A stretch of 64,000 nt of DNA from NCBI GenBank assembly GCA_964016885.1, contig CAXHJY010000818.1:62001-126000 (forward strand), read 5' to 3'. Shown here piece after piece: positions 12,546 through 52,552 of this stretch. This DNA is from Eledone cirrhosa. Lineage: Eukaryota. The position numbers and the translations under genes were made by a program. Under the pieces are notes generated by a model, which made no database searches, was not told the origin of the DNA, and saw only the letters and a program-made list of their open reading frames with translations. Numbering within the stretch: position 1 is the first letter of the stretch; each line of letters begins with the position of its first letter.

Positions 12546-12549
12546 ATGA
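12546..12549 (+). CDS. Cytokine receptor exon 1 (ATG A|gtgagt)
   Basis: aaaaaATGA|GTGAGT; phase 1 joins exon 2 to give MRVLKIFYIL... Confidence 0.6.
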
Positions 12550-13593
12550 GTGAGTATATTCATATTTAATCATTAAAAAAAACAACAACTTTTCTATTAA
12601 TTGTATTTATTAATTGTGTTAATATTTTCATTCTGAAAGAATTGTGAACAATTTCTGTTATTTATACAACTGTGAATAAAATGAATTATCTATCGTAATG
12701 AAATAAATAGACTACTCGTTATATTAACTTCTGTTTACACTGATAAGAGTAGCTGTGATAAACTTAGTTTTTTTTCTACATATATCAACTGTTTAAAGTT
12801 CATAATTGTCTTTGGACTGGTGGTCGGTGGTTGTGATCGACATAATTAATTCTTGTAGAAATGACTCATAATGTGTTTATTTAATTAAGGAATTCAGCGA
12901 TGCTGTCTGTGAACGGTTCGTATATATATATATATAGTTGGAATTCCTTTTATTAATATAATCTTCTATACACACTCATACACACCCGTGTATATTTATC
13001 TATCTATCTATCTATTATATTGTATTGTAATTAGTCTTAGGTGATTTTACCTAAGACTAATTACAATATAATATATATATATATATATTGCTTTATTACT
13101 TTACTACTATATATACGTATATGTAAGGTTCTTATGAATTATCTAAGACTGAGTTTTACACATACACACATGTATGTGTGTGTGTATGTGTATGCATGTG
13201 TATATGTATGTATATGTTTATATATGTATGTATATATATATGTATATATATGTATGTGTGTATATGTATGCGTGTGTGTGTTTGTATTTGGTTGTGCGTG
13301 TTTATGATATATACGTATTTGTATGTGTATAATTGTTTAGCTATGTATATGTGTGTGTATGTGTACGTATATGTGTGTGTGTGTGTGTGCGTTTATATTT
13401 ATGTATATATATATATATATAGTTTTGCGAGGTTTTTTATATGAAATCGTGTGTCGAAACAGATATTGTTATATTTGGGGAGGGTCATATTTGCGTAATA
13501 TTGCCAGAATTAATAACAGAACACACTCAAACAGTGAGTGTGTTCTGTTATTAATTCTGGCAATATTACGCAAATATGACCCTCCCCAAATAT

Positions 13594-13641
<48 letters not shown>

Positions 13642-14144
13642 ATATAACTACATATACATATGTGTGTGTATATATTGTATACGTGTGCGTGTTTGTGCAT
13701 GTATGTGTATGTATGTGTTTATGTATTTGTATATGTATATTTATGTGTGAGAGTGTGTGTATGTGTTTACGATTTCGTACGTATGTATACGTGCATTTGT
13801 GTGTATTACTTGCCATGCGTGTCTGTCCAGTTAGCTGCCTAATGTAACGGTGTCAAAAACTTTTTAATATTTATATAATTTTTTTTTCTTTTTTTTCTTT
13901 TCTTATATTTATTTGCGTGTATGAATATGTAGAGGAGTGCATTTATGTATGTGTATGTATGTACGTATGTATATATGTATGATTGTGTGAATGTATGTAT
14001 GTATATATGTGTGTGTATGGCTATGTTTGTATATGTGTGTGTGTGTATGTGTGTGTATGTATGAATGTATGTATGTGTATATGTGTATGTATGTGTATGT
14101 GTATATAAGTGTATGTTTTATATATATGTGTATGTGTATATATG

Positions 14145-14175
<31 letters not shown>

Positions 14176-14835
14176 TAAATTGTAGAGTGCTTCTTATCCG
14201 ATATCTGCATTGCTTTATTGTACTACAATAAAACTCACCTCCTACATTATATATATATATATATATATATTTCGTTTCTGAATTTGTTTAGCAAGATTCT
14301 TTATCTGAAATCGTGTGTTGAAACCGATATTGTTACACTTTGGGAGGGTCATGCTGCCAATAAGAAACACACGCACCAGTTGCTTTCACTTCAATTTAAT
14401 TTATTAAATATTTATAAATTTACAAATTTATAAATTTCTGGTTGGTTGGTTGGTTCCACAACCAGATAGTTGTTTATATATATATAGTCATAGTTCTTTC
14501 GTCACACACTCTGTGACCTCTTCAGTGACTGGGGATTTCTTTCTTCGTTTCTGTGCCTTTCCTTTCTTCTATCCTACGCCAAACAAAATGGCGTAGGATA
14601 GAAGAAAGGAAAGGCACAGAAACGAAGAAAGAAATCCCCAGTCACTGAAGAGGTCACAGAGTGTGTGACGAAAGAACTATGACTATATATATATAAACAA
14701 CTATCTGGTTGTGGAACCAACCAACCAACCAGAAATTTATAAATTTGTAAATTTATAAATATTTAATAAATTAAATTGAAGTGAAAGCAACTGGTGCGTG
14801 TGTTTCTTATTGGCAGCATGACCCTCCCAAAGTGT

Positions 14836-14883
<48 letters not shown>

Positions 14884-15304
14884 GTTTGAATATGTGTAAT
14901 AAGGCCAAAACAATGCAGGTATGGACATAGAAAAAAGAATGCAATAGTGAAAGATATTGATGAGAATTCGTCTTTCACCTTGAATTTATTTAAATGTCCT
15001 TAATTTTCGAGATAATATCTCTTCTTCGGAGGGAAGTAAAGGTCTCAAACCAGCGTCTTTAAATCTCTAGCCAAGCCTTAAAGACGCTGGTTTGAGACCT
15101 TTACTTCCCTCCGAAGAAGAGATATTATCTCGAAAATTAAGGACATTTAAATAAATTCAAGGTGAAAGACGAATTCTCATCAATATCTTTCACTATTGCA
15201 TTCTTTTTTCTATGTCCATACCTGCATTGTTTTGGCCTTATTACACATATTCAAACGTTTATACCTCATTACACAATGCTTCAAGTGAACTATAACCTTC
15301 TCCC

Positions 15305-15338
<34 letters not shown>

Positions 15339-17363
15339 ATGTATGCTTTTGTGTTTTTTTGTGTGTGTGTTTGCATGTGTAGTTTTATTTTATTTTTCCT
15401 TTCCTTCTTCCTTCTCCAGCCTCACTTTCATATAGATTGTATTTTTGTTTTTTAAAATCCAAATTCAATAAACAAACCAGGATTTTTTCATTCTGAGGAT
15501 TGAAAGCAAAACCTTTTGCTTTTAAGAAACCACTGGTAAATGGAATAATTGCCTTATGTTGTTTATTACATAATAATAATAATTAAGCTCTGTTGCCTAC
15601 ATAGAGCACTCTTTTTTCCTGGACTTTTCCGACGGAATTACTTCATTCACACATATATATATATATAGATAGATAAATAAATATACACCGGTGTATATTT
15701 ACACTACTTGTTTGTATGGTTAAGGCCACATGGTATTGCAATCTTGTCGCAATGTGGTTAACACTACATGTTTGTAGGGTTAAGGCCACATGGTATGGCG
15801 ATCATGTGGTTAACACTATATATATAGTGTATATATTGTTACTCTGGTTGTTTATATATATAGTGTATATATTGTTACTCTGGTTGTTTATATATATAGT
15901 GTATATATTGTTACTCTGGTTGTTTATATATATAGTGTATATATTGTTACTCTGGTTGTTTATATATATAGTGTATATATTGTTACTCTGGTTGTTTATA
16001 TATATAGTGTATATATTGTTACTCTGGTTGTTTATATATATAGTGTATATATTGTCGTTACTCTATTTGTTCATGAATGTATATTTTTGTTTGCAGTATA
16101 TACATATTCCTCACTCTACAATCCCAAGTATCTAGTACTCTTGTGAGTAATGGTTTAACTGGTTTTTACTGCATCAATTTCGGATACATATGTAACACTG
16201 ATTCTTTGTTCCCTTATATATTAATACTATAATATATATATAAATCGAAAGTCTGTCTTTAGCCAAAAGGCTCATTTGGTCGGTGCTTATCCCGGTTTCA
16301 TGGCGTAAAGCGACCGAGAGTATAAGACCCCCCCCCCCCGGGACAGGACGCCAGTCCATCGCAGAGTTAACCTCCAGCTATTGCTGGTACACATTTTCAG
16401 CTGCATATACTGGAAATGAAGTGTTTAAACTCTACTTTGTACGGAGTATTGAGTACTCTTTTCTCTCAGACGCCAATGTCATACGGATCTATATCTCTCT
16501 CTCTATATATATATATAAACAGGGAAGACGGCAACACCTACAAAACGTGTTCCTGGTGTTGAGGGTTGTTCTATCCACGGGGTGTAAAACAACCCCGCAG
16601 TAGCGCCCCTCCCCCCTAATGGGGATTTCAATTGTTTTATTTTTATATAGTTTATTGTTATCTATCATTGTTAAAAATTTTATGTAAAACCACGGCCGTC
16701 AAGTCTTATAATTGTTTCTACTTTTGGCACAAGGCCAGCAATTACCCAGTGCATTACTGGTACTTTATTTTATCGACCCCGTAAGGATGAAAGGCAAAGT
16801 TAACCTCGGCGGGATTTGAACTCAGAATAGCAAGGGCCGTAACTCTATGCGTCAAAGCATGGCGTCCGACTCTCTACCGATACTGCCAATCCACCGTCAA
16901 GTCTTATAATGTCCCATTTTTGTACGCCGCTGTGGCAAATAAAGAAAGATATCTATCTCTCTCTATATATATATAATTACAACAGTGACATAAACAGGTA
17001 CTCAAGTTTCGTTGGGTTCTGGGCCCCAACTCATTCAGCCTGTTATGAGAAAAATAAAAAAACTTGACAGGCTGAACGAGTTGGGGCCCAGAACCCAACG
17101 AAACTTGAGTACCTGTTTATGTCACTGTTGTAATTATTTATACTAAACTCGTTCTATGGACTGAGTGCTCTTACTCTTGGATATTTCCACTTAACTTTTA
17201 CTTCAGTATATATATATATATATATATAACAAAGGAAATGTGGTAAGGAACCAGATGGACCATAACACACCAGAGTACACAATACTTAGGGTAGTAGAGT
17301 GGGAAATAGGAAAAATGATGACCCCGTCGAAACGGCTTGAGCTCTGCCGTCGGGGTCATACTT

Positions 17364-17431
<68 letters not shown>

Positions 17432-20400
17432 ATTTAGGACCCCAACGGCTGAGCTCCGGCCGTTTCGTAAGCTAGATCCGAATCAGCCCACTCGAGTACT
17501 CTGGTGAGTTATGGTCCACCTAGTATCTTACCACACCCTCTTTGTTATATGTAACACACACACACATTATGATTTTTCTAATGTTTTATTTATTTATTTA
17601 TTTTTGTTTTTCTCTCTTCAGGGGTTTTAAAAATATTTTACATCTTAATTCTTGGGTACTTGGTACTACTACAGCAGACTGATGCTACTGGTATGTGTGT
17701 TATTATTATTATTTATCAACTGTGTTATTATTATTTAGGGGCGGTGAATTGGCAGTATCGGTAGAGGGTCGGACGCCATGCTTTGACGCATAGAGTTACG
17801 GCCCTTGCCATTCTGAGTTCAAATCCCGCCGAGGTTAACTTTGCCTTTCATCCTTACGGGGTCGATAAAATAAAGTACCAGTAATGTACTGGATTATTTG
17901 CTGGCCTTGTGCCAATAGTAGAAACAATTATTATTATTTATCAACTCTTGTGGTTAATAAAGAAAGCATTATTTTGTGCCTAAAGTAGAAACAATTATTA
18001 TTATATTGGCAGTATAACTTGGCAGGTTAACTTTGCTTTTCATCCTTACGGGGTCGATAAAATAAAGTACCAGTAATGCAATGGGGTCGATTTAATCGAC
18101 TTTCCCCTCCCCCAAATTACTGGCCTTGTGCCAGTAATCATTATTTCTCCAGCGGTGGATTGGCAGTATCGGTAGAGTCGGACGCCATGCTTTCTAGCAT
18201 AGTTACGTCCCTTTACGATCTGAGTTCAAATCCCGCCGAGGTTGACTTTGCCTTTCATCCTTACGGGGGTCGATAAAATAAAGTACCAGTAATACACTGG
18301 AATAATTGCTGGCCTTGTGCCAAAAGTAGAAACAATTATTTCTGCAGCTGTTTTTTTGCCTCCTTACTAAACCAAGTTGACGTCATAACTGATGACCTAG
18401 CAATTTTTGGTTACTTTCTTCGGTGGTTTATCTTCTCATCCAACCTTCTCAAAATTCTAGCTGCTCCTACCACCACAACTACTACTACTACCACCACAAC
18501 TACTACTACTACGACCACAACTACTACTACTACCACCACAACTACTACTACTACCACCACAACTACTACTACTACCACCACAACTACTACTACTACTACC
18601 ACCACAACTACTACTACCACCACAACTACTACTACCACCACAACTACTACTACCACCACCACAACTACTACCACCACCACCACAACTACTACTACCACCA
18701 CAACTACTACTACCACCACAACTACTACTACCACCACCACAACTACTACTACCACCACAACTACTACTACCACCACAACTACTACTACTACCACAACTAC
18801 TACTACCACCACCACCACAACTACTACTACCACCACCACAACTACTACTACCACCACCACAACTACTACTACCACCACAACTACTACTACCACCACAACT
18901 ACTAACACCACCACAACTACTACTACCACCACAACTACTACTACCACCACCACAACTACTACTACCACCACAACTACTACTACCACCACCACAACTACTA
19001 CTACCACCTCAACTACTACTACCACCACAACTACTACTACCACCACCACCACAACTACTATTACCACCACCACAACTACTTCTACCACCACCACAACTAC
19101 TACTACCACCACAACTACTACTACAACCAACACCACCACCACTACTACCACCACCACCACTACTACTACTAACACCACCACCACTACTACTACTACTAAC
19201 ACCACCACCACTACTACTACTAACACCACCGCTACTACTAACACCACCACCTCTACTACTAACACCACCACCACCACTACTACCACCACCACCACTACTA
19301 CTAACACCACCACTACTACTAACACCACCACCACTACTACTACCACCACCACCACCACTACTACCACCACTACTACTACTACTACTACCACCACCACCAC
19401 TACTACTAACACCACCACCATAAACAGTACAGTTTCTCTTTCATTGCAGAATCTTCCCGCTATACAATATACCGGAATGTTTTGGAATATATTGTGGTTA
19501 GTTTCAACTCTTCATTTCAGCCCAACAATTATTGGAAAGTCGAATGGTAACTACAGAATTAAATTACTACAATTTGTACTATTGCGATCATGTGACCATG
19601 TGGTTAACACTACATGGTTGTGTGGGTAAGGCCACATGGTGTTGCAATCATGTGGTTAACACTACATGGTTGTGTGGGTAAGGCCACATGGTGTTGCATC
19701 ATGTGGTTAATGCTACATGTTTGTAGGGTTAAGGCCACATGGTATTGCGATCATGTGGTTAACACTACATGGTTGTGTGGTTAAGGCCACATGGTATTGC
19801 GATCATGTGGCCATGTGGTTAACACTACATGGCTGTGTGTTAAGGCCACATAGTATTGTGATCATGTGGTTAACACGTGTATAGGGTTAAGGCCACATGG
19901 TATTGTGATCATGTGGTTAACACTACTTGTTTGTATGGTTAAGGCCACATGGTATTGCAATCTTGACGCCATGTGGTTAACACTACATGTTTGTAGGGTT
20001 AAGGCCACATGGTATGGCGATCATGTGGTTAACACTACATGGTTGTGTGGTTAAGGCCACATGGTATTGCGATCATGTGGCCATGTGGTTAACACTACAT
20101 GGTTGTGTGGTTATGGCCACACAGTATTGTTATCATGTGGTTAACACTACATGGTTGTGTGGCTAAAGCCCATGGTTATGTGGTTAACGCTACATGTTTG
20201 TGTGGTTAAGGCCACATGGTATTCTAATCATGTGGTTAATACTACATGGTTGTCGTTATGGCCACATGGTGTTGTAATCATGTGGCTATATGGTTAAAAC
20301 CACATGATGTTGTAACCATGGTTATGTGGTTAAGCCCACATGGTGTTGCAAACATGTAGTATTTGGTTCTGTCCCACCTAATGGCACACTGGACAATTGT

Positions 20401-23400
20401 ATTCTAATGTAATGTCACACCGATCTATGGCTTGTAGACTGAATTAGCGTGGAAGTCCGTCTTACACACATGCATACATGCACACAGACACACTCACACA
20501 CACAGATATATATAGTATTAAATAGATCAAAGGCCATATGCAGTTGTATTTAGGTTTATTTTTATCTCCATGACACATTTTGCCGAGGTCTACAGCTAGA
20601 TAGTTTTCTTCCTACCTATTCCAATACTCGACAGGCGGTAGAAAAACCCTTTAACATTTAAATATCCGGCCAGAATTCTCTCACCTCTTTCTCTTCAAAC
20701 TGGCTGTAACTGGCCACTCATACTGATGTTAAGGTATGGTTCTCAAAATAAATAATATCAAAATCTCATAGATTTGATATTATGTGAGGTAAAGCCTTTA
20801 TCACGAAAATACAATAGTAAATATAGAGTAATGTACATGTTACGTGAGGTAAAGCCTTTATTGTGGAAATACAATAGTAAATATAGAGTAATGTACATGT
20901 TACGTGAGGTAAAGCCTTTATTGTGGAAATACAATAGTAAATATAGAGTAATGTAAATACTAAAGGGTTAAAACAATTTTGCACAACTTGAAAACCTTAA
21001 AAATATTAAAAATCTTCCTGAAAAAATTTCTAAATCTTCCTCAAAAAATTTGTTTCATTTTGTGATACAGGGCTCAGAAGAATGTGTTGTTGTTTCTATG
21101 CCACCTGACCCTTGATGATTTCTTTTGAATGAAACAGTTCTAGTCCTGTAGAAGCCATTTCTATCTTAAACTTGATGTTTACACTACTAATGTATTGAGT
21201 ACTTTACTAACTGTGGTTACCCCTGATTGAACCCAGGACTCATATTTATATATATGCCAATCACATATATGTATTACTGCGTGACCTCTGGCATCACGCA
21301 CATGGCTACAAGCCGAAGCTGGAGCCTAGAGACAATATGCCCCCACCCCCTCCCACTGTAAAGTGGTCGTGGAGGGGCCACGGCAAAAAAGCACCCAGCA
21401 CTCACTGTAAATGAGGTTGGTGTTAGGAAGGGCATCCAGCTGTAGAAATCAAACCAGAATCAGTTCCCGTATGAGCAAGACATGGTCAGCCGACCAGACA
21501 CTGCCCACAACAGGACAACCCGTCTAACCCATGCTAGCGTGGAAGAATGGACTAAAAACTGTGATGATGATGATATACCAATCTCATATATGTGATTGGC
21601 ATCTTCCAGCCTGATAAGTTGAACACTCTACATTTACATCTCATAAATATATATATATATACAATATTAATATATAAGGGAACAAAGAATCAGTGTTGCA
21701 TCGTATACATATTTAATTACATATTACATATGTTTCACTGTCGATCAGCTCGAGGAACGATCTATTAATGATTGAACCTGACTCTGGAATCGGAAGCTCC
21801 TCAGATATGTTTTTAACATGTAGACTCAAGTCTACATGTTAAAAACATACCTGAGGAGCTTCCGATTAAAAAACATTAATAGATCGTTCCTCGAGCTGAT
21901 CGACAATGAAACATATGTAATATGTAATTAAATATGTATATGATGTAACACTGATTCTTTGTTCCCTTATTAATATTATTGATACTTTGCTCCCCAAGAG
22001 CATCGAGTGCTCATTCGGCATACCACCTATGGATGCAATTAATTTACACCTTAATACCTATGTATATGATATGTGTATATATATATATAAATATGATTTA
22101 TGATTGACACATACATATATACATTTTCATCTCTCCAGTATTTCCTTTAAGCAGCTGTTAGATGTATTTCTAGTGACTAATTCTAATGTCTGTTGTTTTC
22201 AGTTATTGTTCATTATATAACAAAACATGGTCACCTTGTAAAAACATATCTTCCAATAAATTCGATTCTTTTGAGAAACTGTATTTTTGTTTCAATATAA
22301 CTATCAATGAACAACAACAAGTTTGGAGTGAAACCAAATGTTTCAAGAAATTAGATATTCCAAGTAAGTATATTGAATATATTAACCCTTTTTCTACCAA
22401 ACCACCTGAAACCTCCTTGGTTTTATCATATACATCTCCCCATATTGAAAAATATCTATATTCAAAACTTCCATGAAATTGTTTGTTTGTTTTTAAAAGA
22501 AATTTTTGTTAAGTAATGTTCTCAACATCAGTTTAGTAATAAAAAGGGGAATTATTTCAATAAATTTAATAATGAAAAGGTGAATTATCTTAATAATTTG
22601 CTCCAAATTTTTGACGATTTGAAAAAAAAATGAATTGAAACATATATTTCATTAGAAATATGCAAACTTTGACAACAAAAAGTTTCTCCCTATGTACAAA
22701 GGACGACTGCATGTGCCTGCTTCCAAAATGCCTAGTTAGCATGATGTCTGTCATTTATCTGAAAAGAAATAATAATTAGAACAGGAGACTGCGATGGTAT
22801 GGACAGATGATGCGCATGGAGGATGACTGATGGATGAAGAAGTGCCAAGAAATGCCAGTTGAAGGAAGACGCAGTAGAGGAAGACCACGAAAAACATGGG
22901 CAGTGGTGGTGAGAGCAGACCTCAGATTGCTGAAGCTCACGGTGGAGATGACAAAGGACTGTGACAAGTGGAGAGATGCTGTGCTGAATAGGACCCATCC
23001 CAACCTTGCAAGCAGGGAAAAGCGGACGTTAAATGATGATGATGATGTATAACATATGTATATGTACAATATATGTATGTATAATATATATATGTATAAT
23101 ATATGTATGTATAATATATGTATATGTATAATATATATAAATACTTGTGTTTTTCAGTTTCTTTGCCACCTTTGGAGAACATTAAGTTTTCATCTTTACA
23201 GACTTCTGATCCTTATAAAAAGTCATTAAATCTGGAATTGGTGAAAAGCTATTCTCCGGCATTATTTATATATCGTATAAGGTACAGAATTCGGTATTGG
23301 CCAGAATGGAAACCCACAGAAGTTACAAATGTAAGTCAATTTTTAAGAGCTGACATTTAAGAATTTGGAGAGATTTAGTAATATAACTAACTTTTACGTT

Positions 23401-25681
23401 AGCCCCCCCCCCCCCCCCCACACACACACTCTCTAATACAAAACTGTTCATAAATGTTTGTATTTATCTAAAAACTTTCCCTCATAATTTTATGTAGGAA
23501 GCTTTGTTATGTTATGTTCCAAACATGAGCTTAATAATGAGAAAGTTATATTACTTGATATCCCCCCTCCATACACACGCACACATGCATATCATGACTC
23601 ATACACTGTTCACTTTCCTGACATTTGTATATTATTCTATGTACTATACTTGCACCTTTGATGAGTGTAGTGCAGCTGAGCACTGTAAACAATAATTCCA
23701 TTATTATTATTATTATTTAAATCACTCCATGTTCTTGATTATTTGTAAAATTAATTGAAAATTCTGGGCAGTGTCTTTCATGAGAAATATGATAATGAAT
23801 GGGTTAAAAGTGAACTAGAAGCTTGTTTATAGGGAGGAAAAATAAAGGAAAGAAGCTGATCATAAGATCAGAACAAAGAAACAATGTTTCTATTGTTCCT
23901 TCCATTGCTAATACTATCTGTCAGTCACAACTTCTGGCAAAAGAGGCAGGATACAAACTCAGAATGCACAGAACTGGACCAGATACCAAAAAACATTCTG
24001 TGAGACTCTTTAACTATGCCATCAATTTACCACCCATGGACTGGTACTTTATTTATCAGTCCTGAAAGGATGGAAATTATAGGATCTGAATTCAGGACAC
24101 TGAAACCCGGAATACATATCTGAGTCATTTAATCCACCTCACAAATGACTCTAACTTACTGCACTTGTTTTATAATTTACTTCTTCTTGAACCACTTATT
24201 CCTAGAAGGGTCTTGGATGTAGAGTTCTCAGGTACATTTTCCAGCAAGTCCTATCAAAAGCAGTCGTCTCCAACTGATCCCCAAGCGATCTCATGGATAT
24301 TATCCAACTATCTTACTTGAGGGTTTACCCCTAGGTTTCCTGTTGGCTGGTTTTGCCCATAAAATCTGACCAGCAATTCTTTCATGAGACATTTTAACCA
24401 AATGTCGATAATATAGGAGCTGTGATGTCTCAATTCGGAGAAGTATCGACTCTACCTGGAGCGTCTCTGATCTCCGAGCTACACCCCGTCGAGTAATGTT
24501 ACTCTAAAGACCCTTTGGAGGAACCTCTTTCTAACCACATGCCCATAATATTAGAGCTGTGATCTCTCAATTCAGAGAAGTAGCGGCTCTACCTGGATTG
24601 ACTCCCTGAACTCCGAGCTACGCATCCTATCAAGTAATGTTACATCAAAGACCCTTCAAAAGGAACCCTATTTCAGCTGCTTGTATTTCTTATCATATAC
24701 TTCCAGCCTTTACCCAAGATTCATGACTTTCTTTAATTCTATTCAATCCATGTCATTTGAGTGTAATTTATTCACATGTATGAATATAACTGAAGAAAGT
24801 TATCAAGTAGTAATGAACAGACGATCGTAACTTGTGGTAGTCATCCTTTTGTCCTTTTATACTCTTTTCAACTGGAGAGCAACTATCTAAAATTACCTTT
24901 TGGAGTTACTTCCCTTACATTAAGTTACTTGTGATAAGAGTTGTTTGTGCATGTTTGTAATCTTTTTATATATTTTATACAAAAAATTGTTTTTTTGGGG
25001 AGATGTTATTTTTTTTTATTTTTTAATCCAGATGATGTCACATCCTTCCCAAACGTTTATTTTGAAAGACCTAATGCCCTTTACCAACTACACATTCATC
25101 GCAGATTTCAAAAGTATCGGGAAGCAGCAATTTATACCGGAATGGTCTCCATCATTTAAAAAATATTTTATAACAGAAACTGGTTTGTTTCAATTTTGTT
25201 TTTAATATTTTATGATGGGTTGGTAGAGGTGGTTGATAGAACATGGGATAAAATGCCATCGTGGTATTTGTCTGGCTTTTTACATTCTGAGTTCAAATCC
25301 TGCCAAAGTCAACTTTGTCTTTCATCTACTCTCCCTCTTTCTGAAGTTGATAAAAGAAACTACCAGTAAAATACTGGGGTTGATTTAATCAACTCTGCTC
25401 TTCCCCCAAATTTACTGGTTTTGTGACTAAATTTGCAGCCGATATTCCATGGTGGATTTGCAGCATAGGTAGAACAACAAATAAAATGTCTTTTGCCATT
25501 TTGATATATCTATTTATATTCTGAGTTCAAAATCTCATTGGAGTGGACTTGGTTTTTTCTTCTTTTATCGTCAATGAAATGAAGTTCCTGTCAAGTTTTC
25601 AGAATAATTGATAATTTGAGTATGGCCTTAACATATGTGGTCTTGTATCAATAGTAGAAATCAAGAGTTCACATTTCACAA

Positions 25682-25715
<34 letters not shown>

Positions 25716-26323: not shown

Positions 26324-26360
<37 letters not shown>

Positions 26361-26368
26361 TAAAATAA

Positions 26369-26399
<31 letters not shown>

Positions 26400-27445
26400 G
26401 TCTTAAAATAAATATAAATATATATATATATATTAAGACTATATATATATATATAAAGACTATATATATATATATAAAGACTATATATATATATATAAAG
26501 ACTATATATATATATATAAAGACTATATATATATATATAAAGACTATATATATATATATATAAAGACTATATATATATAAAGACTATATATATATAAAGA
26601 CTATATATATATATATATATAAAGACTATATATATATATATATAAAGACTATATATATATATATATTAAGACTATATATATATATATATATATGGAGGCA
26701 CATGGCTTAGTGGTTAGAGCATTGGCCTTGCAATCGAAAGGTTGTGAGTTCAATTCTCAGACCGGGTGATGTGTTGTTTCCTTGAGCAAGACACTTTATT
26801 TCACATTGCTCCAGTTTACTCAGCTGTAGAAATGAGATGATAGGGGCTGGGGTCCCTATCATTCCACTGCAAAGTGGTCGTGGAGGTGCCACGGCAAAAA
26901 AGCACCCAGCACTCACTGTAAATGAGGTTGGTGTTAGGAAGGGCATCCAGCTGTAGAAATCAAGCCAGAATCAGTTCCCGTCCCACCCTTGCAAGCAGGG
27001 AAAAAACGGACGTAAAATGAAATGATGATGATGATATATTAAGACTATATATATATTAAGACTATATATATATATATTAAGACTATATATATATATATAT
27101 ATTAAGAATATATATATATATTAAGAATATATATATATTAAGAATATATATATATATTAAGAATATATATATATATATATGTGTGTGAGTGTGTTAATAT
27201 AATATTCTCTCTTTCGTCACAAACAATGGTCATTGTTTTATTTCTTGCCAGCTGCTCCTTACCCAGTCCAAACCACAAATAGCAGTTACTATGAATGGAA
27301 TTGTTCCAACACAACCCAGGAAAGGTGTATTACAGTATTTTGGCAGGTATGAAGAAATGTTTCTATTTGTATATCTAACAAGTAAAGTAATATCATCATT
27401 TTACGTCCACTTTTCCCTGCTTGCAAGGGTGGGACTTTTATATAT

Positions 27446-27478
<33 letters not shown>

Positions 27479-30400
27479 TGGCAGGTATATAGAAATATAT
27501 CTATTTGTATATCTAATGGTTAAGATAATAAATATATATCTATTTGTATATTTAACGAGTAAGGTGGTATATTGGCGGGTACATAGAAATATTTTACCAT
27601 ATATATTTTATATTTTAACAATATTTTACCAAATATATTTTATATTATAACAATATTGTAACATTATTATTGTTTATCGTCTTTACAGAGTTTACCATTG
27701 AAATTCCGGAATGATATTATAACTGGATATTGTGTTCAATATATTGGTGAAAGTTTATCATCCAATGAAACTGATCAATGCCTGGATTCACACAATCTTA
27801 CCGTTAATTCTTTATATAAACATTTTCGATATCTTCCAAAGAACCAAACACTCACATTTTCCATCGTGGCAGTATCAAAAAGTAAGAGAATATCTCAACC
27901 CACATTTATACAGGTGAAAAACACAGGTAATTACACCTTTTAGTTTGTTTAACCCACTCATTACTATACTTGTATTTCTAATGAAAGACACTGTCCACTA
28001 TGTCATTAACCCTTTCATTGCCATATTTCTAATGAAAGACAGTCTATGTCATTAACCCTTTCATTACCCTATTTCTAATGAAACACACTGTCTATGTCAT
28101 TAACCCTTTCATTGCCCTATTTCTAATGAAAGACACTGTTCCCTATGTCATTAACCCTTTCATTACCATATTTCTAATGAAAGACACTGTCCCCTATGTC
28201 ATTAACCCTTTCATTACCATATTTCTAATGAAAGACACTGTCCCCTATGTCATTAACCCTTTCATTACCCTATTTCTAATGAAAGACACCGTCTATGTCA
28301 TTACCCTGTCATTACCCTATTTCTAATGAAAGACACTGTCTATGTCATTACCCTATTTCTAATCAAAGACACTGTCTATGTCATTAACCCTGTCATTACC
28401 TTGATGTAAGAAATATGAAATAAATATGAAACATTGATTTGTTGACTTTTTCAGCTCCAGTGAAACCCAAAGCAGTTTATGTAATGAAAATAGGTGAGAA
28501 AATGTACAATGTGTCGTGGTTAGTTGAACAACCAGAGGAGGTTGTTAGTATAACAGTGCTCTGGTGTCAGGAGGAGATCTTGTCTTCTAAAATGCAATGC
28601 AAAGTAAGTACACTATGTCCACTACCACCTCTATCACAACCACCACCACCACCACCACCATGACCACTACTAACCACCACCACCAAATGGTAATAATGGT
28701 AGAAGCAGTGGAAAAAACACAAGACAGACAGACAACAACAACAACAGTAAATTATATGAAATTCTTCTATTTTTAGGATCATGTCAAATGGGAAACAATT
28801 TCAAATGAAAGTTATGTCTTGGTAAATTCCAGTTTAGAAGAACTGCCAATATTTTCTGCTTCTGTCAACACAAAAGATGGTGAAAGTCCCTTAACACGAG
28901 CTGAATGTATATTCACTCCTGGAAAACGTAATTATTACAATTTCATACAACAACAACAACACACACAACGAAGGCTTCAACCCTTTAGTATTTGCATTAA
29001 TCAGTATCGGTAGAGGATCAGATGCCATGCTTTGCAGCATAGAGTTACGGCTCTTTGCAGTCTGAGTTCAAATCCCGCTGAGGTTAACTTTGTCTTTCAT
29101 CCTTATGGAGTCGATAAGATAAGGCACCAGTAATTCACTGGAATAATTGCTGGTTTTGTGCCAAAAGTAGAAACAATTATTCTCAATATACTATTGTGTT
29201 TTCATGGTTAAGACTTTATCTTACATAATTACCTCACATAATATCAAATTTATGAGATTTTGATATTATTTATTTTGAGAACAATACTTTAACATTGGTA
29301 TGAGTGGCCAGTTATGGCCGATTTGAACAGAAGAGGTGAGAGAATTCTGGCCGGATACAGCCGGTTTGAATGCTAAAGGGTTAAGGTTATTTTTACCCTG
29401 TTAACACTATAATAATTATATTACTCTATATTTACTATTATATTTTCACAGTAAAGGCTTTACCTCACATAACATTTCCATTACTCTATATTTACTATTA
29501 TATTTTCACAGTAATGTCTTTACCTCACATAATATCTCACATAACATTTCCATTACTCTATATTTACTATTATATTTTCACAGTAATGTCTTTACCTCAC
29601 ATAATATCGAATCTATGAGATTTTGATAATATTTATTTTGAGAACAATACCTTAACATCATTAAGAGTGACCAGTTACAGCCAGTTTGAAGAGAAGAGGT
29701 GAGAGAATTCTGACTGGATATGGCTGGTTTAAATGCTAAAGGATTAGTCTTTCCAGTTCCCGTGGCAAGCTTATCCATTGGGCCTTTACCAACCTCTAGC
29801 TTTTGTCTTTCCTATCACGATCCACATTCATTTTTATCACTTCTCTCACTCAGTCACTTTCATCCTTGCTCAACACATGACCCAACCATCTCACTCCATT
29901 TTTCTTCACAATATTCATCACATCACTGGCTTTATTTCTGTCACCAAAGTTAGCTTTGCCATTCATCCTTACGGTGTCGATAAAATAAAGTATCAGTAAT
30001 GCACTGGGATCGATTTAATTGCCCCCCCCCCCCCCCATTGCTGGCCTTGTGCCTAAAGTAGAAACAATTATTATTATTATGAAAAATATATTATTTTAGC
30101 CACAAAACCTCATAAACCTCAGATTATTTGGGCAGAAACAAAGTTTATTTTGAGATGGCCAACCCTGCAATGTTCTGACTGGAATGGTATACCGGTTGCT
30201 TATGTTCTCATGTATGCAAAGGGGAAAACCTGCAAAAATGGTAAGTCTAATTATTTCCTGTCCTCTTTCTATTATTTGTTGGTGGTACTGTTGGTGTTAA
30301 TATTGTTGTTGTTGCTGCTACTGTTGGTGTTGTTTAGACATCTTTCTTTGAACCTACATCTGGAATGGAAAAAAGAAACAAAATAAAAGATATGTTATTC

Positions 30401-33400
30401 CCATCTTTTCCAAAGATTAATGTGTCTAGTGAAATAGTAGATGTCTTATTCTGATATTCCCATCTTCCCCAAAGATATCGGTGTGATGTGAAATAAATAG
30501 AAATGATATAAAGTTGGTTTTTTTTTTCTGTTCTGTTTTAAAATCCTTTTCAGGTATGAAGAAAGAATATCCGGTGACAGGAATCAAGGCTGTTGAAAGC
30601 AACGTTGTCATCAATGGTTTAGTGGCTGACACAGAATATTCTGTGTGTCTACAACTGAAGACAATGGAAGATATTAGCTTAATGAGTGAAACAGTGACAG
30701 AAACAACTAAAGACACTGGTAAATGGAATTATCTAGAATCTCATGAGGTCTTGGGGTTATTGATGGCTAATATATTGGAATGGTGGGGGGGAGGGGAGTC
30801 TTGGGGTATCTGATGGCTGATATATTGGAATGGTGGGGGGGGTCTTGGGGGTATCTGATGGCTGATATATTGGAATGGTGGGGGGGGGGGGAGGAGGTCT
30901 TGGGGTATCTGATGGCTGTAATAGATTTTTAGGAGACACAGAAATGAGTTATGACTTTCAGTTCTTTCACAAGAAATACTAAAAATGTTACATGGAAGGA
31001 CATTTTTACCATTAAAAAATGAAAAATCTATCATAGTCTTCATGAAATCTCATCTCTACTCTACAGTATTTGCCTTACTTGTACGACCCTCTTTAGTTGC
31101 TAATGACCCTGGGTTTGTTCCTCCAATGTTCCCCTCTCAGGCACCAATTTAATGCTATAATAAATATTCTCACTTTTACAGAAAATTCAAGCCTGATGTA
31201 CCTGGGTGTTTTCATTGGTATTTTTCTCTTTCTTTTGCTCATAACTTTCATATTGAATCATGTGAAAAGGTGAGTCTAGCATTTTTATAACACTTTGTTT
31301 TCACACACATATTATCATGATTATATATATAGAGAGTTATATTGTAATTATGCCTTAGATGAAACACTGTGTAAGGAGTAAATTTTGTTTCTAAATGTAT
31401 TGCCTTCTCCTCCATTTATTTTTGCTTAATATATATATATATATATATATATTTAAAAGTTAAACAAGGTTCAAAGAATGAGTTTTACAATAGATTGGAA
31501 GCACTCAACAGTAATGGTTTTCCAGAGTTATTAATATTAATTCAAAATATTAACAAAATAGATATTCGTGTGATCAAGTATATTTTATTATACATATTTC
31601 AGAGGTACTGAGTTAACTTCAACAGTACGTCCTCATCAGATAAAATAAGATGATGCATGACATACCCTGACTTAGTAGATGGTTAAGATTCACTACCATG
31701 ACTGAATCTTAACCATCTACTATGTCAGGGTATGTCATGCATCATCCTATTTTATCTGATGAGGATGTACTGTTAAACTTAACTCAGTACCTCTGAAATG
31801 TGTATAATAAAATATACTTGTTCACACAAATATCTATTTTATTAATATTTTGAATTAATATATATATATATTATGTTTGTACCACAAAACACCCAGTCCA
31901 CACTGTAAATGTGGTTTGTCATTAGGAAAGGCTTCCAGCTGTAGAAACAGTCCTATATGAGCGAGAGACGGTCACTCGACCCAACTTGCCTTTAAATGGG
32001 ACAAACCCGTCTAACCCATGCTAGCGTAGAAGGTAGACATTAAACGATGATGATGTTACACACATATACACACACAGGTATACACATACATATATGCACA
32101 CACAAACACAATTGATTAATGTGAGGTACAAAATAACTGATTAGAGACTGTTTACCTGTCGCCAACACAACCACATTACAGGGTGGACTGGGTGCTATTA
32201 ACTAATTAGAAACTGTTTACCTGTCACCAATACAACCACATTACAGGGTGGACTGGGTGCTATTAACTAATTAGAGACTGTTTACCTGTCGCCAACACAA
32301 CCACATTACAGGGTGGACTGGGTGCTATTAACTAATTAGAGACTGTTTACCTGTCGCCAACACAACCACATTACAGGGTGGACTGGGTGCTATTAACTAA
32401 TTAGAGACTGTTTACCTGTCGCCAACACAACCACATTACAGGGTGGACTGGGTGCTATTAACTAATTAGAGACTGTTTACCTGTCGCCAACACAACCACA
32501 TTACAGGGTGGACTGGGTGCTATTAACTAATTAGAGACTGTTTACCTGTCGCCAACACAACCACATTACAGGGTGGACTGGGTGCTATTAACTAATTAGA
32601 AACTGTTTACCTGTCACCAATACAACCACATTACAGGGTGGACTGGGTGCTATTAACTAATTAGAGACTGTTTACCTGTCGCCAACACAACCACATTACA
32701 GGGTGGACTGGGTGCTATTAACTAATTAGAGACTGTTTACCTGTCGCCAACACAACCACATTACAGGGTGGACTGGGTGCTATTAACTAATTAGAGACTG
32801 TTTACCTGTCGCCAACACAACCACATTACAGGGTGGACTGGGTGCTATTAACTAATTAGAGACTGTTTACCTGTCGCCAACACAACCACATTACAGGGTG
32901 GACTGGGTGCTATTAACTAATTAGAGACTGTTTACCTGTCGCCAACACAACCACATTACAGGGTGGACTGGGTGCTATTAACTAATTAGAAACTGTTTAC
33001 CTGTCACCAATACAACCACATTACAGGGTGGACTGGGTGCTATTAACTAATTAGAGACTGTTTACCTGTCACCAGCACAACCACATTACAGAGTGGACTG
33101 GGTGCTATTAACTAATTAGAGACTGTTTACCTGTCGCCAACACAACCACATTACAGGGTGGACTGGGTGCTATTAACTAATTAGAGACTGTTTACCTGTC
33201 GCCAACACATCTCTTTTAATGTATTTCAGTTGCCACAAGTATTCTAAATCAATTGATATCAAGACTTTGAACACGGTAAGTTATTCTCTTCTCTGCTAGG
33301 ATGGATTAAATCACTTCCAACTAACAATTCTCTTTCTCATATATATATATATACACGTGTATATAAATACAAACATGTATATATATTTATATAACAAAGG

Positions 33401-33698
33401 AATCGTGGTAAGGAACCAGATGGACCATAACGCACCAGAGTACTCAATACTTAGGGTAGTAGAGTGGGAAATAGGAACAAGTATGACCCCGACGGCAGAG
33501 CTCCAGCCGCTTCGACGGCTTGAGCTGGACTCATATTTATATACACATATATACACACACACACATATATATATATACACACACACATATATATAATATA
33601 TGAAATAAAAATATAAATAAAATATATATAATAAAAATAATACACACACACACACATATATATACACACACACAACATATATACACACACATATATAT

Positions 33699-33769
<71 letters not shown>

Positions 33770-35604
33770 TATATATATATATATACACACATGTGTGTAT
33801 ACTAAATCGCACATATACAGACTCACTAGGAGAATGTTTCCTACTCTTTACATGTTCCAAGCCGACTGGTTGAGGCCATACTGGGGCACAGCCATTCCTA
33901 ATTGAAGTTTTATTTTCTCTTTAAGCTAAATCTCTCTATATATCTATCTATCAACAGATATATGAGAAAATTGTCAGTTGGAAGTGTGTAGAGTGTATAT
34001 GTGCGTGTATATATATACACAAAAAAAAAAATACAGTCCAAGCTGTAATGTGGTCATGTAGGTAACACGGTAAAAAGCTCCCAGTCCACACTGTAAATGT
34101 GGTTGGTGTTAGGAAGGGCATCTAACTGTAGAAAACCTGCCAGATAGTCCTATACGAGCGAGTCAGTCACCCGACCAATCTTGCCTCAAATGGGACAACT
34201 CCCGTCTAACCCATGCTAGCGTGGAAGATAGACGTGAAACGATGATGATGAAACAATCTACACACTTCCAACAACAATTCTCTCATATATATGTTGATAG
34301 ATAGATATATAGAGAGATTTAGCTTAAAGAGGAAATAAAACTTCAATTAGGAATGGCTGTGTCCCAGTAACGCCTCAGCCAGTCGGCTTGGAACATGTAG
34401 GAAAATTAAAACGATTGCATGAGATAAATATTAAGTGTTGTTTTCTGATGTCTGTATCATATATTTAATATATTATTTTCTTGTTTATCCCTAACAGGGT
34501 TCCTCTAGTGATGACACAGAATGCAATTATGAAAAAATTAAAAATTATGAAAATCAAAATGTGGATGGTAGTAAAAAATTGCAGTTTTCGTTATCTGAAG
34601 AATCTGGTTATTTTAGTTACAATTCATCTATGACAGAAAAGCTACGTTTTAATGAGTCGAATGGAAGTCACAAAAGCAGACTATCAGGCGAAATTCATTC
34701 AGGGTATATACAAATTGACAACTCGAAGGAAGAATTTCAAAACACTTTGAAAAATACTGTGATTATTAATAATAACAAGCTTCTCCCTTATAAAATAGAG
34801 AAAACTGGATATGTTTCTAATGAACCTGGTTATGTTGACATACCAGGAGAATGTTTCAGAGAAGGTCAAGAGTCAACTACCACATCTGTAGATGACAATT
34901 ATGTTTCTAACGAATCTGGTTATGTTGACAGACGAGGAGAATGTTTCAGAGGTCAAGAGTCAACTACCACATCTGTAGATGACAATTATGTTTCTAACGA
35001 ACCTGGTTATGTTGACAGACGAGGAGAATGTTTCAGAGGTCAAGAGTCAACTACCACATCTGTAGATGACAATTATGTTTCTAACGAACCTGGTTATGTT
35101 GATGGACAAGGAGAATATTTCAGAGAAGCTCCAGAGTCAACTACCACATCTGTAGATGACAATTATGTTTCTAACGAACCTGGTTATGTTGACAGACCAG
35201 GAGAATGTTTCAGAGAAGCTCCAGAGTCAACTACCACATCTGTAGATGACAATTATGTTTCTAACGAACCTGGTTATGTTGACAGACCAGGAGAATGTTT
35301 CAGAGAAGCTCCAGAGTCAACTACCACATCTGTAGATGACAATTATGTTTCTAACGAACCTGGTTATGTTGATGGACAAGGAGAATATTTTACTAAATCT
35401 AATTCATTTCCTACACATAAAAATACAAACAATAAGGAAAGTATTTCAGATTATATAACGTCTGAACCTGTTATGAAAGATAATGTTCTAGAAAAACTTG
35501 ATGAAATTAATAACAAAAACATTAACTCTGATGAAAATAAACTGAAATTAAAGACTATCGGAAAGAAACTAGAAAGTTTAAAGCTGAAACAGATGAAAAT
35601 ATAA
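12546..35604 (+). CDS. Domeless/gp130-like type I cytokine receptor, full gene span (15 coding exons, 944 aa)
   Basis: Exons 12546-12549, 17622-17690, 19450-19546, 22203-22363, 23158-23330, 25032-25182, 27252-27346, 27689-27926, 28455-28603, 28777-28927, 30100-30240, 30554-30718, 31182-31269, 33230-33275, 34498-35604 all have AG/GT boundaries and matching phases and sum to 2835 nt. The product has a signal peptide, FN3 motifs (L.P.T.Y, EWS, N.II.GY, NG....Y), a TM helix and a Tyr-rich tail. Confidence 0.8.
14270..14843. mobile_element. Fold-back element (probable Penelope-like element terminus), ~255-bp arms
   Basis: 14327-14581 is the inverted complement of 14589-14843; unpaired tail 14270-14326; (TA)n flanks; same family at 13425-13600 and 56611-56935. 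Confidence 0.75.
14640..14684 (+). ncRNA. Type I minimal hammerhead ribozyme motif (mirror copy 14486-14530 on -)
   Basis: Stem I agtca/tgact, CUGAAGA, stem II gtcac/gtgac, GAAA, minimal stem III, CUA triplet. Confidence 0.7.
14879..15305. mobile_element. Fold-back element, ~185-bp arms plus 3' tail
   Basis: 14879-15062 inverted with 15078-15262; related single-arm copy at about 51940-52120. Confidence 0.75.
15815..16060. repeat. 36-bp tandem repeat (about 6 copies)
   Basis: tatatatagtgtatatattgttactctggttgttta. Confidence 0.9.
16250..16375 (-). mobile_element. Third SINE-like family fragment; related copy at about 46790-46900 (+)
   Basis: gatggactggcgtcctgt...gaaaccggg shared between the two copies. 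Confidence 0.6.
16975..17205. mobile_element. Fold-back element with a hammerhead in each arm plus 3' tail
   Basis: 16975-17043 inverted with 17067-17135. Confidence 0.75.
17067..17116 (+). ncRNA. Type I minimal hammerhead ribozyme motif (mirror copy 16994-17043 on -)
   Basis: Stem I acagg/cctgt, core CUGAACGA (one extra nt; CUGAAUGA in the mirror), stem II gttggg/cccaac, GAAA, short stem III c(ttga)g, GUA cleavage triplet. Confidence 0.7.
17622..17690 (+). CDS. Cytokine receptor exon 2: signal peptide (RVLKIFYILILGYLVLLQQTDAT)
   Basis: Strong pyrimidine tract and cag acceptor, gtatgt donor, hydrophobic core with small residues at the cleavage region; phase 1-1. Confidence 0.75.
17737..17930 (+). 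mobile_element. tRNA-derived SINE family A (representative). Other copies: 10139-10325+, 16712-16900-, 18025-18135+, 18151-18340+, 25217-25435+, 26100-26243-, 29004-29180+, 29950-30070+, 37972-38075+, 38400-38500-, 39420-39510-, 39517-39705-, 45330-45510+, 45937-46125+, 46387-46575+
   Basis: A-box-like tggcagtatcgg, B-box gagttcaaatcc, core gcctttcatccttacggggtcgataaaataaagtaccag, (ATT)n tail. Confidence 0.9.
18469..19420. repeat. (ACT/ACC/ACA)n trinucleotide repeat in receptor intron 2
   Basis: Direct inspection. Confidence 0.95.
19450..19546 (+). CDS. Cytokine receptor exon 3 (ESSRYTIYRNVLEYIVVSFNSSFQPNNYWKVEC)
   Basis: ttcattgcag acceptor, gtaact donor, phase 1-2 bridges exons 2 and 4 exactly. 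Confidence 0.65.
19580..20350. repeat. ~49-bp minisatellite; detached copy at 15700-15820
   Basis: ggttaacactacatggttgtgtggttaaggccacatggtattgcgatcatgt. Confidence 0.9.
20647..20967. mobile_element. piggyBac-like MITE with internal 60-bp tandem repeats
   Basis: Ends CCCTTTA...TAAAGGG followed by TTAA; same internal sequence at 29220-29380 and 29420-29745. Confidence 0.65.
21275..21575 (+). mobile_element. RTE 3' fragment
   Basis: Reverse complement of the 7600-7950 region; gatgat tail. Confidence 0.8.
21660..22060. mobile_element. Fold-back element plus tail (fragments also at 16185-16230, 25725-25890)
   Basis: Arms centred on tagactcaagtcta at about 21828; right arm has an internal deletion. 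Confidence 0.7.
22203..22363 (+). CDS. Cytokine receptor exon 4 (YCSLYNKTWSPCKN...CFKKLDIP), Cys-containing first module
   Basis: ttttcag/gtaagt boundaries, phase 2-1. Confidence 0.75.
22778..23048 (+). mobile_element. RTE 3' fragment (another subfamily)
   Basis: RLRWYG.MMR..GRPRKTW remnant, (GAT)n tail. Confidence 0.8.
23158..23330 (+). CDS. Cytokine receptor exon 5 (ISLPPLENIKF...YRIRYWPEW), FN3 N-half
   Basis: ttttcag/gtaagt, FN3 PP.N and Y.IRY motifs, phase 1-0. Confidence 0.8.
25032..25182 (+). CDS. Cytokine receptor exon 6 (LKDLMPFTNYTF...IPEWSPS), FN3 C-half with degenerate WSxWS
   Basis: L.P.T.Y tyrosine-corner motif then EWS; phase 0-1. Confidence 0.85.
26260..26690. repeat. (TA)n-AAGAC compound repeat (continues at 27035-27180)
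   Basis: Direct inspection. Confidence 0.9.
26694..27033 (+). mobile_element. tRNA-derived SINE family B head fused to an RTE 3' tail; head also at 1-120 (-) and about 51200-51325 (-); 3' part at 56980-57250 (-)
   Basis: tggcttagtggttagagc A-box, gagttcaattc B-box, ccttgagcaagacacttta core, then RTE 3'UTR and (GAT)n. Confidence 0.85.
27252..27346 (+). CDS. Cytokine receptor exon 7 (AAPYPVQ...RCITVFWQ)
   Basis: ttgccag/gtatga, phase 1-0, FN3 start with R..TV.W. Confidence 0.8.
27689..27926 (+). CDS. Cytokine receptor exon 8 (SLPLKFRNDIITGYCVQY...)
   Basis: ctttacag/gtaatt, N.II.GY motif typical of gp130/Dome membrane-proximal FN3; phase 0-1. Confidence 0.8.
27960..28400. repeat. ~51-bp tandem repeat containing a piggyBac-like end (ttaaccctttcattacc)
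   Basis: attaaccctttcattaccatatttctaatgaaagacactgtcccctatgtc units. Confidence 0.85.
28455..28603 (+). CDS. Cytokine receptor exon 9 (APVKPK...YNVSW...TVLWC...QCK)
   Basis: tttcag/gtaagt, VSW and T..WC motifs; phase 1-0. Confidence 0.85.
28777..28927 (+). CDS. Cytokine receptor exon 10 (DHVKWETIS...AECIFTPGK)
   Basis: ttttag/gtaatt; phase 0-1. Confidence 0.8.
28981..29380. mobile_element. piggyBac-like MITE interrupted by a SINE A copy
   Basis: CCCTTTAGTATT...AATGCTAAAGGG TTAA terminal inverted repeats; SINE at 29004-29180 inside. Confidence 0.65.
30100..30240 (+). CDS. Cytokine receptor exon 11 (..LRWPTLQCSDWNGIPVAYVLMY..)
   Basis: ttttag/gtaagt; W....C...NG....Y motif; phase 1-1. Confidence 0.85.
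30554..30718 (+). CDS. Cytokine receptor exon 12 (..INGLVADTEYSVCL..)
   Basis: tttcag/gtaaat; GL...T.Y FN3 motif; phase 1-1. Confidence 0.85.
30735..30920. repeat. ~50-bp G-rich tandem repeat
   Basis: gtcttgggg(g)tatctgatggctgatatattggaatggtggggg x3-4. Confidence 0.85.
31182..31269 (+). CDS. Cytokine receptor exon 13: transmembrane helix (LMYLGVFIGIFLFLLLITFIL)
   Basis: tttacag/gtgagt; 21-residue hydrophobic stretch followed by NHVK; phase 1-2. Confidence 0.85.
31460..31862. mobile_element. Fold-back element, ~160-bp arms
   Basis: 31533-31692 inverted with 31703-31862; (TA)n flanks. Confidence 0.7.
31880..32055 (+). mobile_element. RTE 3'UTR fragment (others at 34030-34250 and 38770-38957)
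   Basis: cccagtccacactgtaaatgtggttg...catgctagc...gatgat. Confidence 0.75.
32136..33209. repeat. 65-bp minisatellite, ~16.5 copies
   Basis: actaattaga recurs at 32201, 32266, 32331, 32396... Confidence 0.95.
33230..33275 (+). CDS. Cytokine receptor exon 14: juxtamembrane (SCHKYSKSIDIKTLNT)
   Basis: atttcag/gtaagt; phase 2-0 links the TM exon to the final exon. Confidence 0.75.
33848..34400. mobile_element. Fold-back element with an RTE 3' fragment between its arms
   Basis: 33848-33992 inverted with 34257-34399; RTE piece at 34030-34250. Confidence 0.7.
34498..35604 (+). CDS. Cytokine receptor exon 15: cytoplasmic tail with tandem Tyr repeats
   Basis: ctaacag acceptor in frame with ORF 34561..35604; 87/90-bp in-frame repeats. 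Confidence 0.8.
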   Translation, partial: GSSSDDTECNYEKIKNYENQNVDGSKKLQFSLSEESGYFSYNSSMTEKLRFNESNGSHKSRLSGEIHSGYIQIDNSKEEFQNTLKNTVIINNNKLLPYKIEKTGYVSNEPGYVDIPGECFREGQESTTTSVDDNYVSNESGYVDRRGECFRGQESTTTSVDDNYVSNEPGYVDRRGECFRGQESTTTSVDDNYVSNEPGYVDGQGEYFREAPESTTTSVDDNYVSNEPGYVDRPGECFREAPESTTTSVDDNYVSNEPGYVDRPGECFREAPESTTTSVDDNYVSNEPGYVDGQGEYFTKSNSFPTHKNTNNKESISDYITSEPVMKDNVLEKLDEINNKNINSDENKLKLKTIGKKLESLKLKQMKI

Positions 35605-35850
35605 AACAAAATGATTTCTGTGTTAGTTATATTTGATATGGAATCTTCAGCAGATGAGATTAATGAAAAAAATATTGAAGAAAACAGACAAGAAATAACT
35701 CCAATTCACTTTGGTTTTTGAGATCTCATAAACAATAATTTCTATAAAATATTCAATTATTTTCTGTTTGCAAAGAATCCAAGATAATTTGAAAAATCAA
35801 AACAAAACAAAGTTTCCAAACTGGAAATGGATATATTACAAATATCAAAA

Positions 35851-52521: not shown

Positions 52522-52552
<31 letters not shown>

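Follow-up and report, generated by a model that had tools for sequence, protein, structure and literature searches.

A gene on the forward strand of Eledone cirrhosa, at positions 12546-35604 of the window (the whole 64,000-nucleotide stretch of contig CAXHJY010000818.1 analysed here, positions 62,001 to 126,000, assembly GCA_964016885.1), encodes a predicted single-helix receptor whose ancestry is very probably of the class I cytokine receptor type. The chain resembles a tall class I receptor but is not a canonical one, since three defining features are missing from it: the cysteine motif, WSXWS and a Box 1 with proline. Its most distinctive part is the cytoplasmic tail, which was absent from the description in an earlier note on this DNA. 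With a probability of roughly 0.45, we propose that this receptor is a STAT-docking co-receptor using the JAK of a partner paralogue.

Rebuilding the gene from the raw sequence reproduced exactly the 15 exons, canonical boundaries and 944 residues claimed in the earlier note. All 14 introns are GT..AG, the spliced frame runs for 944 residues to a stop codon with 0 internal stops, and the intron phases are, in order, 1,1,2,1,0,1,0,1,0,1,1,1,2,0. The pyrimidine fraction at the acceptors was 0.65-0.94 for 13 of the 14 introns and 0.47 for the remaining one; the 944 AG dinucleotides of the gene span average 0.49, with their 95th percentile at 0.71. Database proteins matched exons 7-12 in the correct order (E 2e-4 to 2e-30). 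Profiles made only from paralogues bearing an immunoglobulin (Ig) domain gave exons 3, 4, 5 and 6 each as the best match out of 2575 six-frame segments (E 0.02, 7.5e-4, 4e-12 and 4e-5, respectively). The coding part of exon 1 (12546-12549, the start codon and one base) is the sole ATG..GTRAGT phase-1 candidate within 11000-17600, and exon 14 (33230-33275) has no plausible rival as a phase 2-to-0 exon in the interval from exon 13 to exon 15. The predicted protein comprises a signal peptide (residues 1-24), an ectodomain of 510 residues with 15 N-glycosylation sequons, a helix at residues 536-556 and a tail of 388 residues. Residues 2-24 of the hydrophobic signal peptide are encoded by exon 2 (17622-17690) and share 61% identity with the Octopus vulgaris orthologue over 18 residues.

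Splicing between exons 12 and 13 was seen directly in a contig of the public run X1 (623 letters, depth 18) that joins 30625-30717 directly to 31181-31269, the two parts being contiguous in the contig itself. The spliced-read check suggested in the earlier note is therefore positive for 1 of the 14 junctions (1 of the 6 inside the compared stretch), in a run whose kind is unrecorded. Contigs of runs X2-X4 continue through introns and thus behave as DNA, and X1 has zero depth over the bins with exons 7-10, although such holes prove nothing. A Pfam scan of 13 single exons, also suggested earlier, returned a weak fn3 match for exon 12 (E 0.04, under the cut-off) and otherwise chance matches.

Several repeats lie within the introns. 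A 950-bp ACC/ACT/ACA array in intron 2 (18467-19418) is open in a poly-threonine frame and has an AG just before it; we rejected this frame as a mucin-like exon, since its reading frame does not agree with that of exon 3 and a usable donor is missing. A 65-bp minisatellite (32134-33209, 16.6 copies at 97%) ends 20 bases short of the exon 14 acceptor. Long perfect inverted duplications, found by eye at 14300-14880, 15000-15280, 16990-17130, 21700-21970 and 31560-31840, are either fold-back elements or assembly artefacts.

The gene belongs to a small octopod family. Searching 1.84 billion proteins with exon 8 gave 6 matches, of which 4 were real, all octopod, and two further profile searches added four relatives; P0005, P0006 and P0030 were set aside because their matches were driven by repeats or by generic FN3 similarity (4 of 6 and 2 of 3 kept). 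The searches led to no relative outside Octopus and Argonauta, perhaps because they were word-based. The family comprises three types, for which we coined the labels Ig-less (LOC115222071: Octopus sinensis XP_029648031.1, O. vulgaris CAI9736974/5 and Argonauta GAB1603598.1), IgA (LOC115222231) and IgBC (LOC115232134/LOC106877106). In O. vulgaris the paralogues carry consecutive accessions (CAI9736974-78) on a single 71.8-Mb contig, and in Argonauta two of the three types carry adjacent accessions. This three-gene cluster, with relatives found in these two genera only by searches that did not reach other molluscs, fits the lineage-specific paralogue that the earlier note had inferred. All the octopod relatives are named uncharacterized in NCBI except the O. 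vulgaris IgBC gene, which is named PTPRF-like; as the orthologues were already predicted there, calling the gene hidden was an overstatement. Some O. vulgaris gene models seem to skip exons: the Box 1 exon is missing from the IgBC model (CAI9736976/7), as are equivalents of exons 6-7 from the IgA model (CAI9736978).

The Eledone protein is nearest to the Ig-less type, with 42% identity over the head (E 1e-43) and 56% over the ectodomain by BLAST. It also groups with this type in a head tree (support 90/91, not starred, with long branches flagged), while trees of exons 9-10, exons 11-12 and the membrane region neither showed nor rejected an Ig-less clade. Like the LOC115222071 orthologues, it has no Ig domain, an F/G-strand cysteine pair in the first head domain (D1), an S-A/S-D-P-Y loop in the second (D2) and a similar post-membrane segment, and it shares a tyrosine array with those of Octopus. 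Together, these comparisons indicate that the Eledone gene is the orthologue of the LOC115222071-type proteins.

We then turned to the ectodomain. The cytokine-binding-like head is encoded by exons 3 (19450-19546) and 4 (22203-22363), the two halves of D1, and by exons 5 (23158-23330) and 6 (25032-25182), the two halves of D2; all four were found by profile match, and exon 6 was also placed by the family alignment. The stalk consists of three FN3 domains, each split into two exons: 7 (27252-27346) and 8 (27689-27926), 9 (28455-28603) and 10 (28777-28927), and 11 (30100-30240) and 12 (30554-30718). Exon 13 (31182-31269) encodes the helix. The head plus three FN3 domains that the earlier note gave for Dome/gp130 receptors was therefore recovered, and with the single helix and long tyrosine-bearing tail it makes a layout of the gp130/Domeless type. 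The same arrangement is found in vertebrate gp130, IL-12Rb2, OSMR, LIFR and G-CSFR and in the Ig-less IL-12Rb1/IL-27Ra/IL-31Ra type.

Fold predictions on octopod orthologues agree with this layout. The O. sinensis orthologue model (P0024) shows five beta-sandwich domains and a helix, with a mean predicted local confidence (pLDDT) of 59.7 and a predicted template-modelling score (pTM) of 0.34. A Foldseek search with the 702-residue orthologue placed gp130 and the long chains from complexes of IL-6, IL-11, IL-12 and OSM at ranks 1-11 (E 1e-19 to 6e-16), ahead of LAR at rank 12 (E 2e-15), and the top fold matches of the full orthologue model include gp130/IL-12Rb2/OSMR-type chains. The head alone (P0019, 195 residues) was modelled at pLDDT 87.5 as two tandem FN3 folds in the manner of a cytokine-binding region. 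Among the Foldseek matches listed for it, 38 of 40 are class I receptors and 2 are class II-type, and in the VIA comparison with 48,161 chains class I receptor-type chains occupy rows 1-18. GHR was the best (Z 14.2, root-mean-square deviation (rmsd) 2.9 over 180 residues); the first fibronectin scored Z 11.8 (rmsd 6.2) and LAR Z 11.1 (rmsd 11.6). In a further structure listing all 50 rows among the matches listed are class I chains, and named class I receptors fill 8 of the best 10 rows of protein language-model neighbours, where no Domeless cluster appeared among those best 10 atlas rows. In this fold check, set beforehand as a refutation test and run on the orthologue, the lead thus belongs to tall class I receptors, not to phosphatases or adhesion molecules.

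The class hallmarks have eroded. Class I receptors are defined by CX9-10CXWX26-32CX10-15C in D1 and by WSXWS, described as slightly variable, in D2 (PMC1963337). Exon 3 lacks the cysteine pair, as the earlier note had pointed out. Of the exon 4 cysteines (C57, which lies across the junction, C59, C69, C86 and C103), C57-x11-C69 fits the spacing of the second canonical pair only. At the WSxWS position, exon 6 reads IPEWS. These traits were seen directly, but they are not specific to this gene: the C-x9/10-C-x-W pattern occurs in 0 of 10 octopod family rows and so does WSxWS, one row being without that exon, and at the latter position seven relatives have one tryptophan and the Argonauta orthologue none. 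Loss of the cysteine pair and erosion of WSxWS therefore characterize the whole octopod family. Compared with vertebrate tall class I receptors, to which its identity is 13-15%, the Eledone chain lacks CX9-10CXW, WSXWS and a PxP Box 1, has a single YxxQ plus a tandem tyrosine array and, unlike gp130, has no Ig domain. That absence, noticed earlier, holds: a five-paralogue Ig profile found no Ig exon in the window (best E 4.2), and three Ig-less orthologues likewise pass from the signal peptide directly into D1 while both other paralogue types keep Ig. The Ig loss is real and common to the Eledone gene and its orthologues. The intron phases around the head are 1-2-1-0-1, the rule for class I receptor genes. 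The same phases are printed for class II receptor genes (PMC8863823), and head splice phases do not separate the two classes. The Domeless head lies in one exon (PMC1963337), in contrast to the four exons with vertebrate-like phases of the Eledone gene.

The cytoplasmic tail, of which exon 15 (34498-35604, up to the stop codon of the open reading frame) encodes 368 residues, contains 24 tyrosines. Within it, a 90-bp coding tandem repeat (34810-35390, 6.5 copies, 95% match) specifies, together with its degenerate first unit, seven 30-residue repeats with 14 tyrosines, in 7 YVSN and 7 YVD motifs. Valine or isoleucine comes next after 16 of the 24 tyrosines; in four array-less tails this is so for 19 of 52, against about 6 expected, although these tails are related and hence not independent. 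The Eledone tail has 7 YxxN sites, and at the start of exon 15 stands a Y-E-K-I site, with YxxI similarly placed in Ig-less and IgBC relatives, which resembles the membrane-near YXXV site of gp130 for SHP2/SOCS3 (PMC1963337). Drosophila Eye transformer/Latran (Et/Lat) likewise has YxxN sites, proposed for docking, and binds STAT (PMC4751595); compared with it, the Eledone tail is long and the JAK motif is gone.

This array has counterparts in relatives. The O. vulgaris orthologue has eight related units of 34 residues, six of them nearly identical, each with one tyrosine in contrast to the two of the Eledone unit. A profile of the O. vulgaris unit scored higher on the Eledone unit than on any of 2000 shuffles (2000/2000), indicating homology, and the IgA paralogue has two copies of the unit. 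Since Eledone, O. vulgaris and IgA share the unit, it predates their separation, and each lineage has amplified or homogenised it on its own; each species' array is internally uniform. A search among longer proteins with the Eledone tail as query retrieved 0 of 7989 candidates. Similarity to the relatives' distal tail persists past the Eledone stop, in a remnant that crosses a frame change (35574-35721): the score of the segment after the stop was reached by 0 of 1000 shuffles and that of the frame-3 segment by 18 of 1000, while a third candidate remnant (35788-35850) was not significant (906 of 1000). We conclude that about 100 C-terminal residues have decayed, including the D-Y-V-K-T-E of Ig-less and IgA relatives; because there are several lesions, an assembly error is less likely.

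In Domeless, JAK binding depends on the proline in an LP motif, with D-I-G-L-V-L-P as the primer-derived context (PMC4751595), and Box 1 has been called proline-rich (PMC10952290). In contrast to Drosophila Domeless, the Eledone chain has no LP motif: exon 14, at the Box 1 position, shows alternating hydrophobic residues and 0 prolines, the 40 residues past the helix contain none, and a proline-bearing alternative exon 14 was searched for and not found. Its Octopus LOC115222071 relatives differ in having a proline after the helix. The pattern [ILV]x[ILV]x[IL]P occurs in 3 of 4 IgBC sequences (IEIEIP, INIDLP and IDIELP in three species), the fourth gene model skipping that exon, and in 0 of 7 Ig-less or IgA sequences. 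Thus, the Domeless-type JAK motif survives in one octopod paralogue type only, IgBC. Clustered duplicates and an LP-type JAK motif, kept in octopod IgBC, are likewise features of Drosophila Domeless and Et/Lat.

These observations suggest how the Eledone receptor might work. A helical cytokine would bring the Ig-less chain into a complex with the neighbouring JAK-motif paralogue. The head, predicted on the orthologue to be L-shaped and of cytokine-binding type, would hold the ligand at its elbow, by analogy with known receptors. D1 of gp130 serves site III (PMC7378365); without an Ig domain the Eledone chain would be unable to form a site III contact of the gp130 type, and only with a partner could a full complex arise. 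JAK would arrive on the IgBC paralogue (I-x-I-x-[LI]-P) and phosphorylate the Y-V repeats of the Ig-less chain. These repeats would dock STAT, their number setting the signal gain, and the conserved Y-E-K-I would recruit dampers of the SHP2/SOCS type. At the position following the tyrosine, STAT5 prefers hydrophobic residues. The STATs of invertebrates fall into one group with STAT5/6.

Several points weigh against this co-receptor reading. First, a proline 19-25 residues past the helix in 4 of 7 Ig-less/IgA sequences may be a shifted Box 1; proline-less Drosophila Domeless is dominant-negative and its authors concluded that each complex needs two JAKs (PMC4751595), so that a one-JAK heterodimer might not signal. 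Second, the tail contains one YxxQ and zero YxxL, its repeats fit no textbook STAT site from the available parts of the cited papers, and the family-conserved D-Y-V-K-T-E region is lost. Third, the folds were predicted on orthologues (42% head and 56% ectodomain identity), not on the spliced Eledone protein. The full orthologue model has, besides its low pTM of 0.34, TM-scores of merely 0.22-0.26, which we attribute to domain angles that are not modelled; the head Z exceeds that of fibronectin by only 2.4, and in a PDB sequence search LIFR (6e-7) is narrowly ahead of PTPRF (1.6e-6).

The chain could instead be self-sufficient, with a non-canonical Box 1 that holds JAK in the absence of proline and with no need of a particular partner, which we consider possible but rather unlikely. 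Exon 14 does retain K-Y, alternating hydrophobic residues and the exon phases, a proline stands one position further along in the Octopus orthologues, and two of the three paralogues have long tyrosine-rich tails yet no canonical motif. However, the proline is critical in Domeless and Box 1 is proline-rich (PMC4751595, PMC10952290), and 3 of 7 Ig-less/IgA sequences, Eledone included, have no proline within 40 residues. Unlikely as well is a decoy or brake resembling Et/Lat or Domeless P925I, which would pair with the signalling paralogue or absorb ligand and STAT, in either case giving no signal. Losing the Box 1 proline, the Ig domain and the conserved C-terminal tyrosine motif would suit such a role, and Et/Lat too arose as a duplicate next to its relative, has YxxN sites and binds STAT; but Et/Lat is short and keeps its JAK site while the Eledone tail is long, and amplification of the tyrosine unit in two lineages suggests selection for phosphorylation-dependent docking. 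That the gene is decaying and will end as a pseudogene seems very improbable: the roughly 100 C-terminal residues decayed behind a frame change and stops and the long terminal branch in the head tree speak for it, but all 14 splice junctions are intact, 944 codons are open, the ectodomain shares 56% identity with the orthologue and a spliced contig exists at depth 18. Least probable of all is an FN3 adhesion or guidance-type receptor with a phosphatase-, neogenin- or Tie-like ectodomain that merely resembles cytokine receptors, since the absence of canonical cysteines, CxW and WSxWS, the position of PTPRF and neogenin just behind LIFR by sequence and the PTPRF-like name of one paralogue are outweighed by the structural ranks of the predicted folds, which already weaken it, by the intron phases, by the LP motif in IgBC and by tails in which no catalytic or phosphatase Pfam domain was found, in Eledone or in relatives.

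In O. sinensis, Ig-less and IgA share 18-31% identity across the four head exons and 95% in exon 8; in O. vulgaris exon 8 is 96% identical between the two types. Such values are as high as the 94% seen between IgA orthologues of different species. Eledone exon 8 has 71-76% identity to both Octopus types, and the exon 8 tree rejects a clade of Eledone and Octopus Ig-less in the approximately unbiased (AU) test (p-AU 0.039; 0.051 with Argonauta added). The O. vulgaris Ig-less and IgA distal tails are 84% identical over 191 residues. Judging from these comparisons, stalk exons appear to have been homogenised between octopod paralogues by gene conversion, exon 8 being so matched in Octopus.

A second, more abundant X1 contig (912 letters, depth 39) differs from exon 12 at 4 of the 91 bases matched (30625-30715) and leaves the gene after exon 12 without continuing into exon 13. 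One of the differences gives valine at residue 511, which is valine in 6 of 6 Ig-bearing and leucine in 4 of 4 Ig-less rows. This valine and the exit after exon 12 point to an Eledone paralogue with a near-identical exon 12; alternatively, the contig could be a divergent allele with other splicing.

More speculatively, and with real doubt, octopods may have a shared-chain cytokine receptor system independent of that of vertebrates, with one JAK-binding chain and two partner chains, fast-diverging heads, conversion-matched stalk and tail parts and repeat number as a gain dial.

Elsewhere in the window, RYK-like receptor kinase exons lie on the minus strand (46140-50200), convergent with the receptor gene; 49608-49928 matches human RYK (6tua, E 2.4e-10), and more exons were seen by eye near 46140-46310 and 50100-50200. 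On the plus strand, 52328-55528 holds a 1066-codon frame that by eye resembles the endonuclease and reverse transcriptase of a long interspersed nuclear element (LINE), with a partial copy on the minus strand at 7897-9213.

A literature search, with subscription papers outside its reach, found no description of the octopod receptor genes. A molluscan survey (Yu et al. 2026, PMC13203501) reports, in its available part, receptor, JAK and STAT and no IL-6-type ligand. Its IL6R homologues are of the same broad class and from the same phylum as the octopod receptors; they normally have an Ig and an IL6R domain, and that part mentions neither Ig-less chains nor Box 1 loss, arrays or conversion. As two Octopus species are in its species list, one octopod receptor may appear there as 'IL6R'.

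Our analysis identifies three clustered octopod genes, so far unnamed or misnamed, as cytokine-type receptors, and predicts which of them holds JAK, so that the pairing of ligands with receptors, and signalling in the blood cells or immunity of cephalopods, can be tested directly. The erosion of their hallmarks explains why surveys based on motifs overlook receptors of this kind. Heads at 18-31% identity next to a 95% stalk exon, together with separately expanded arrays, are an unusual route to receptor specificity and signal strength.

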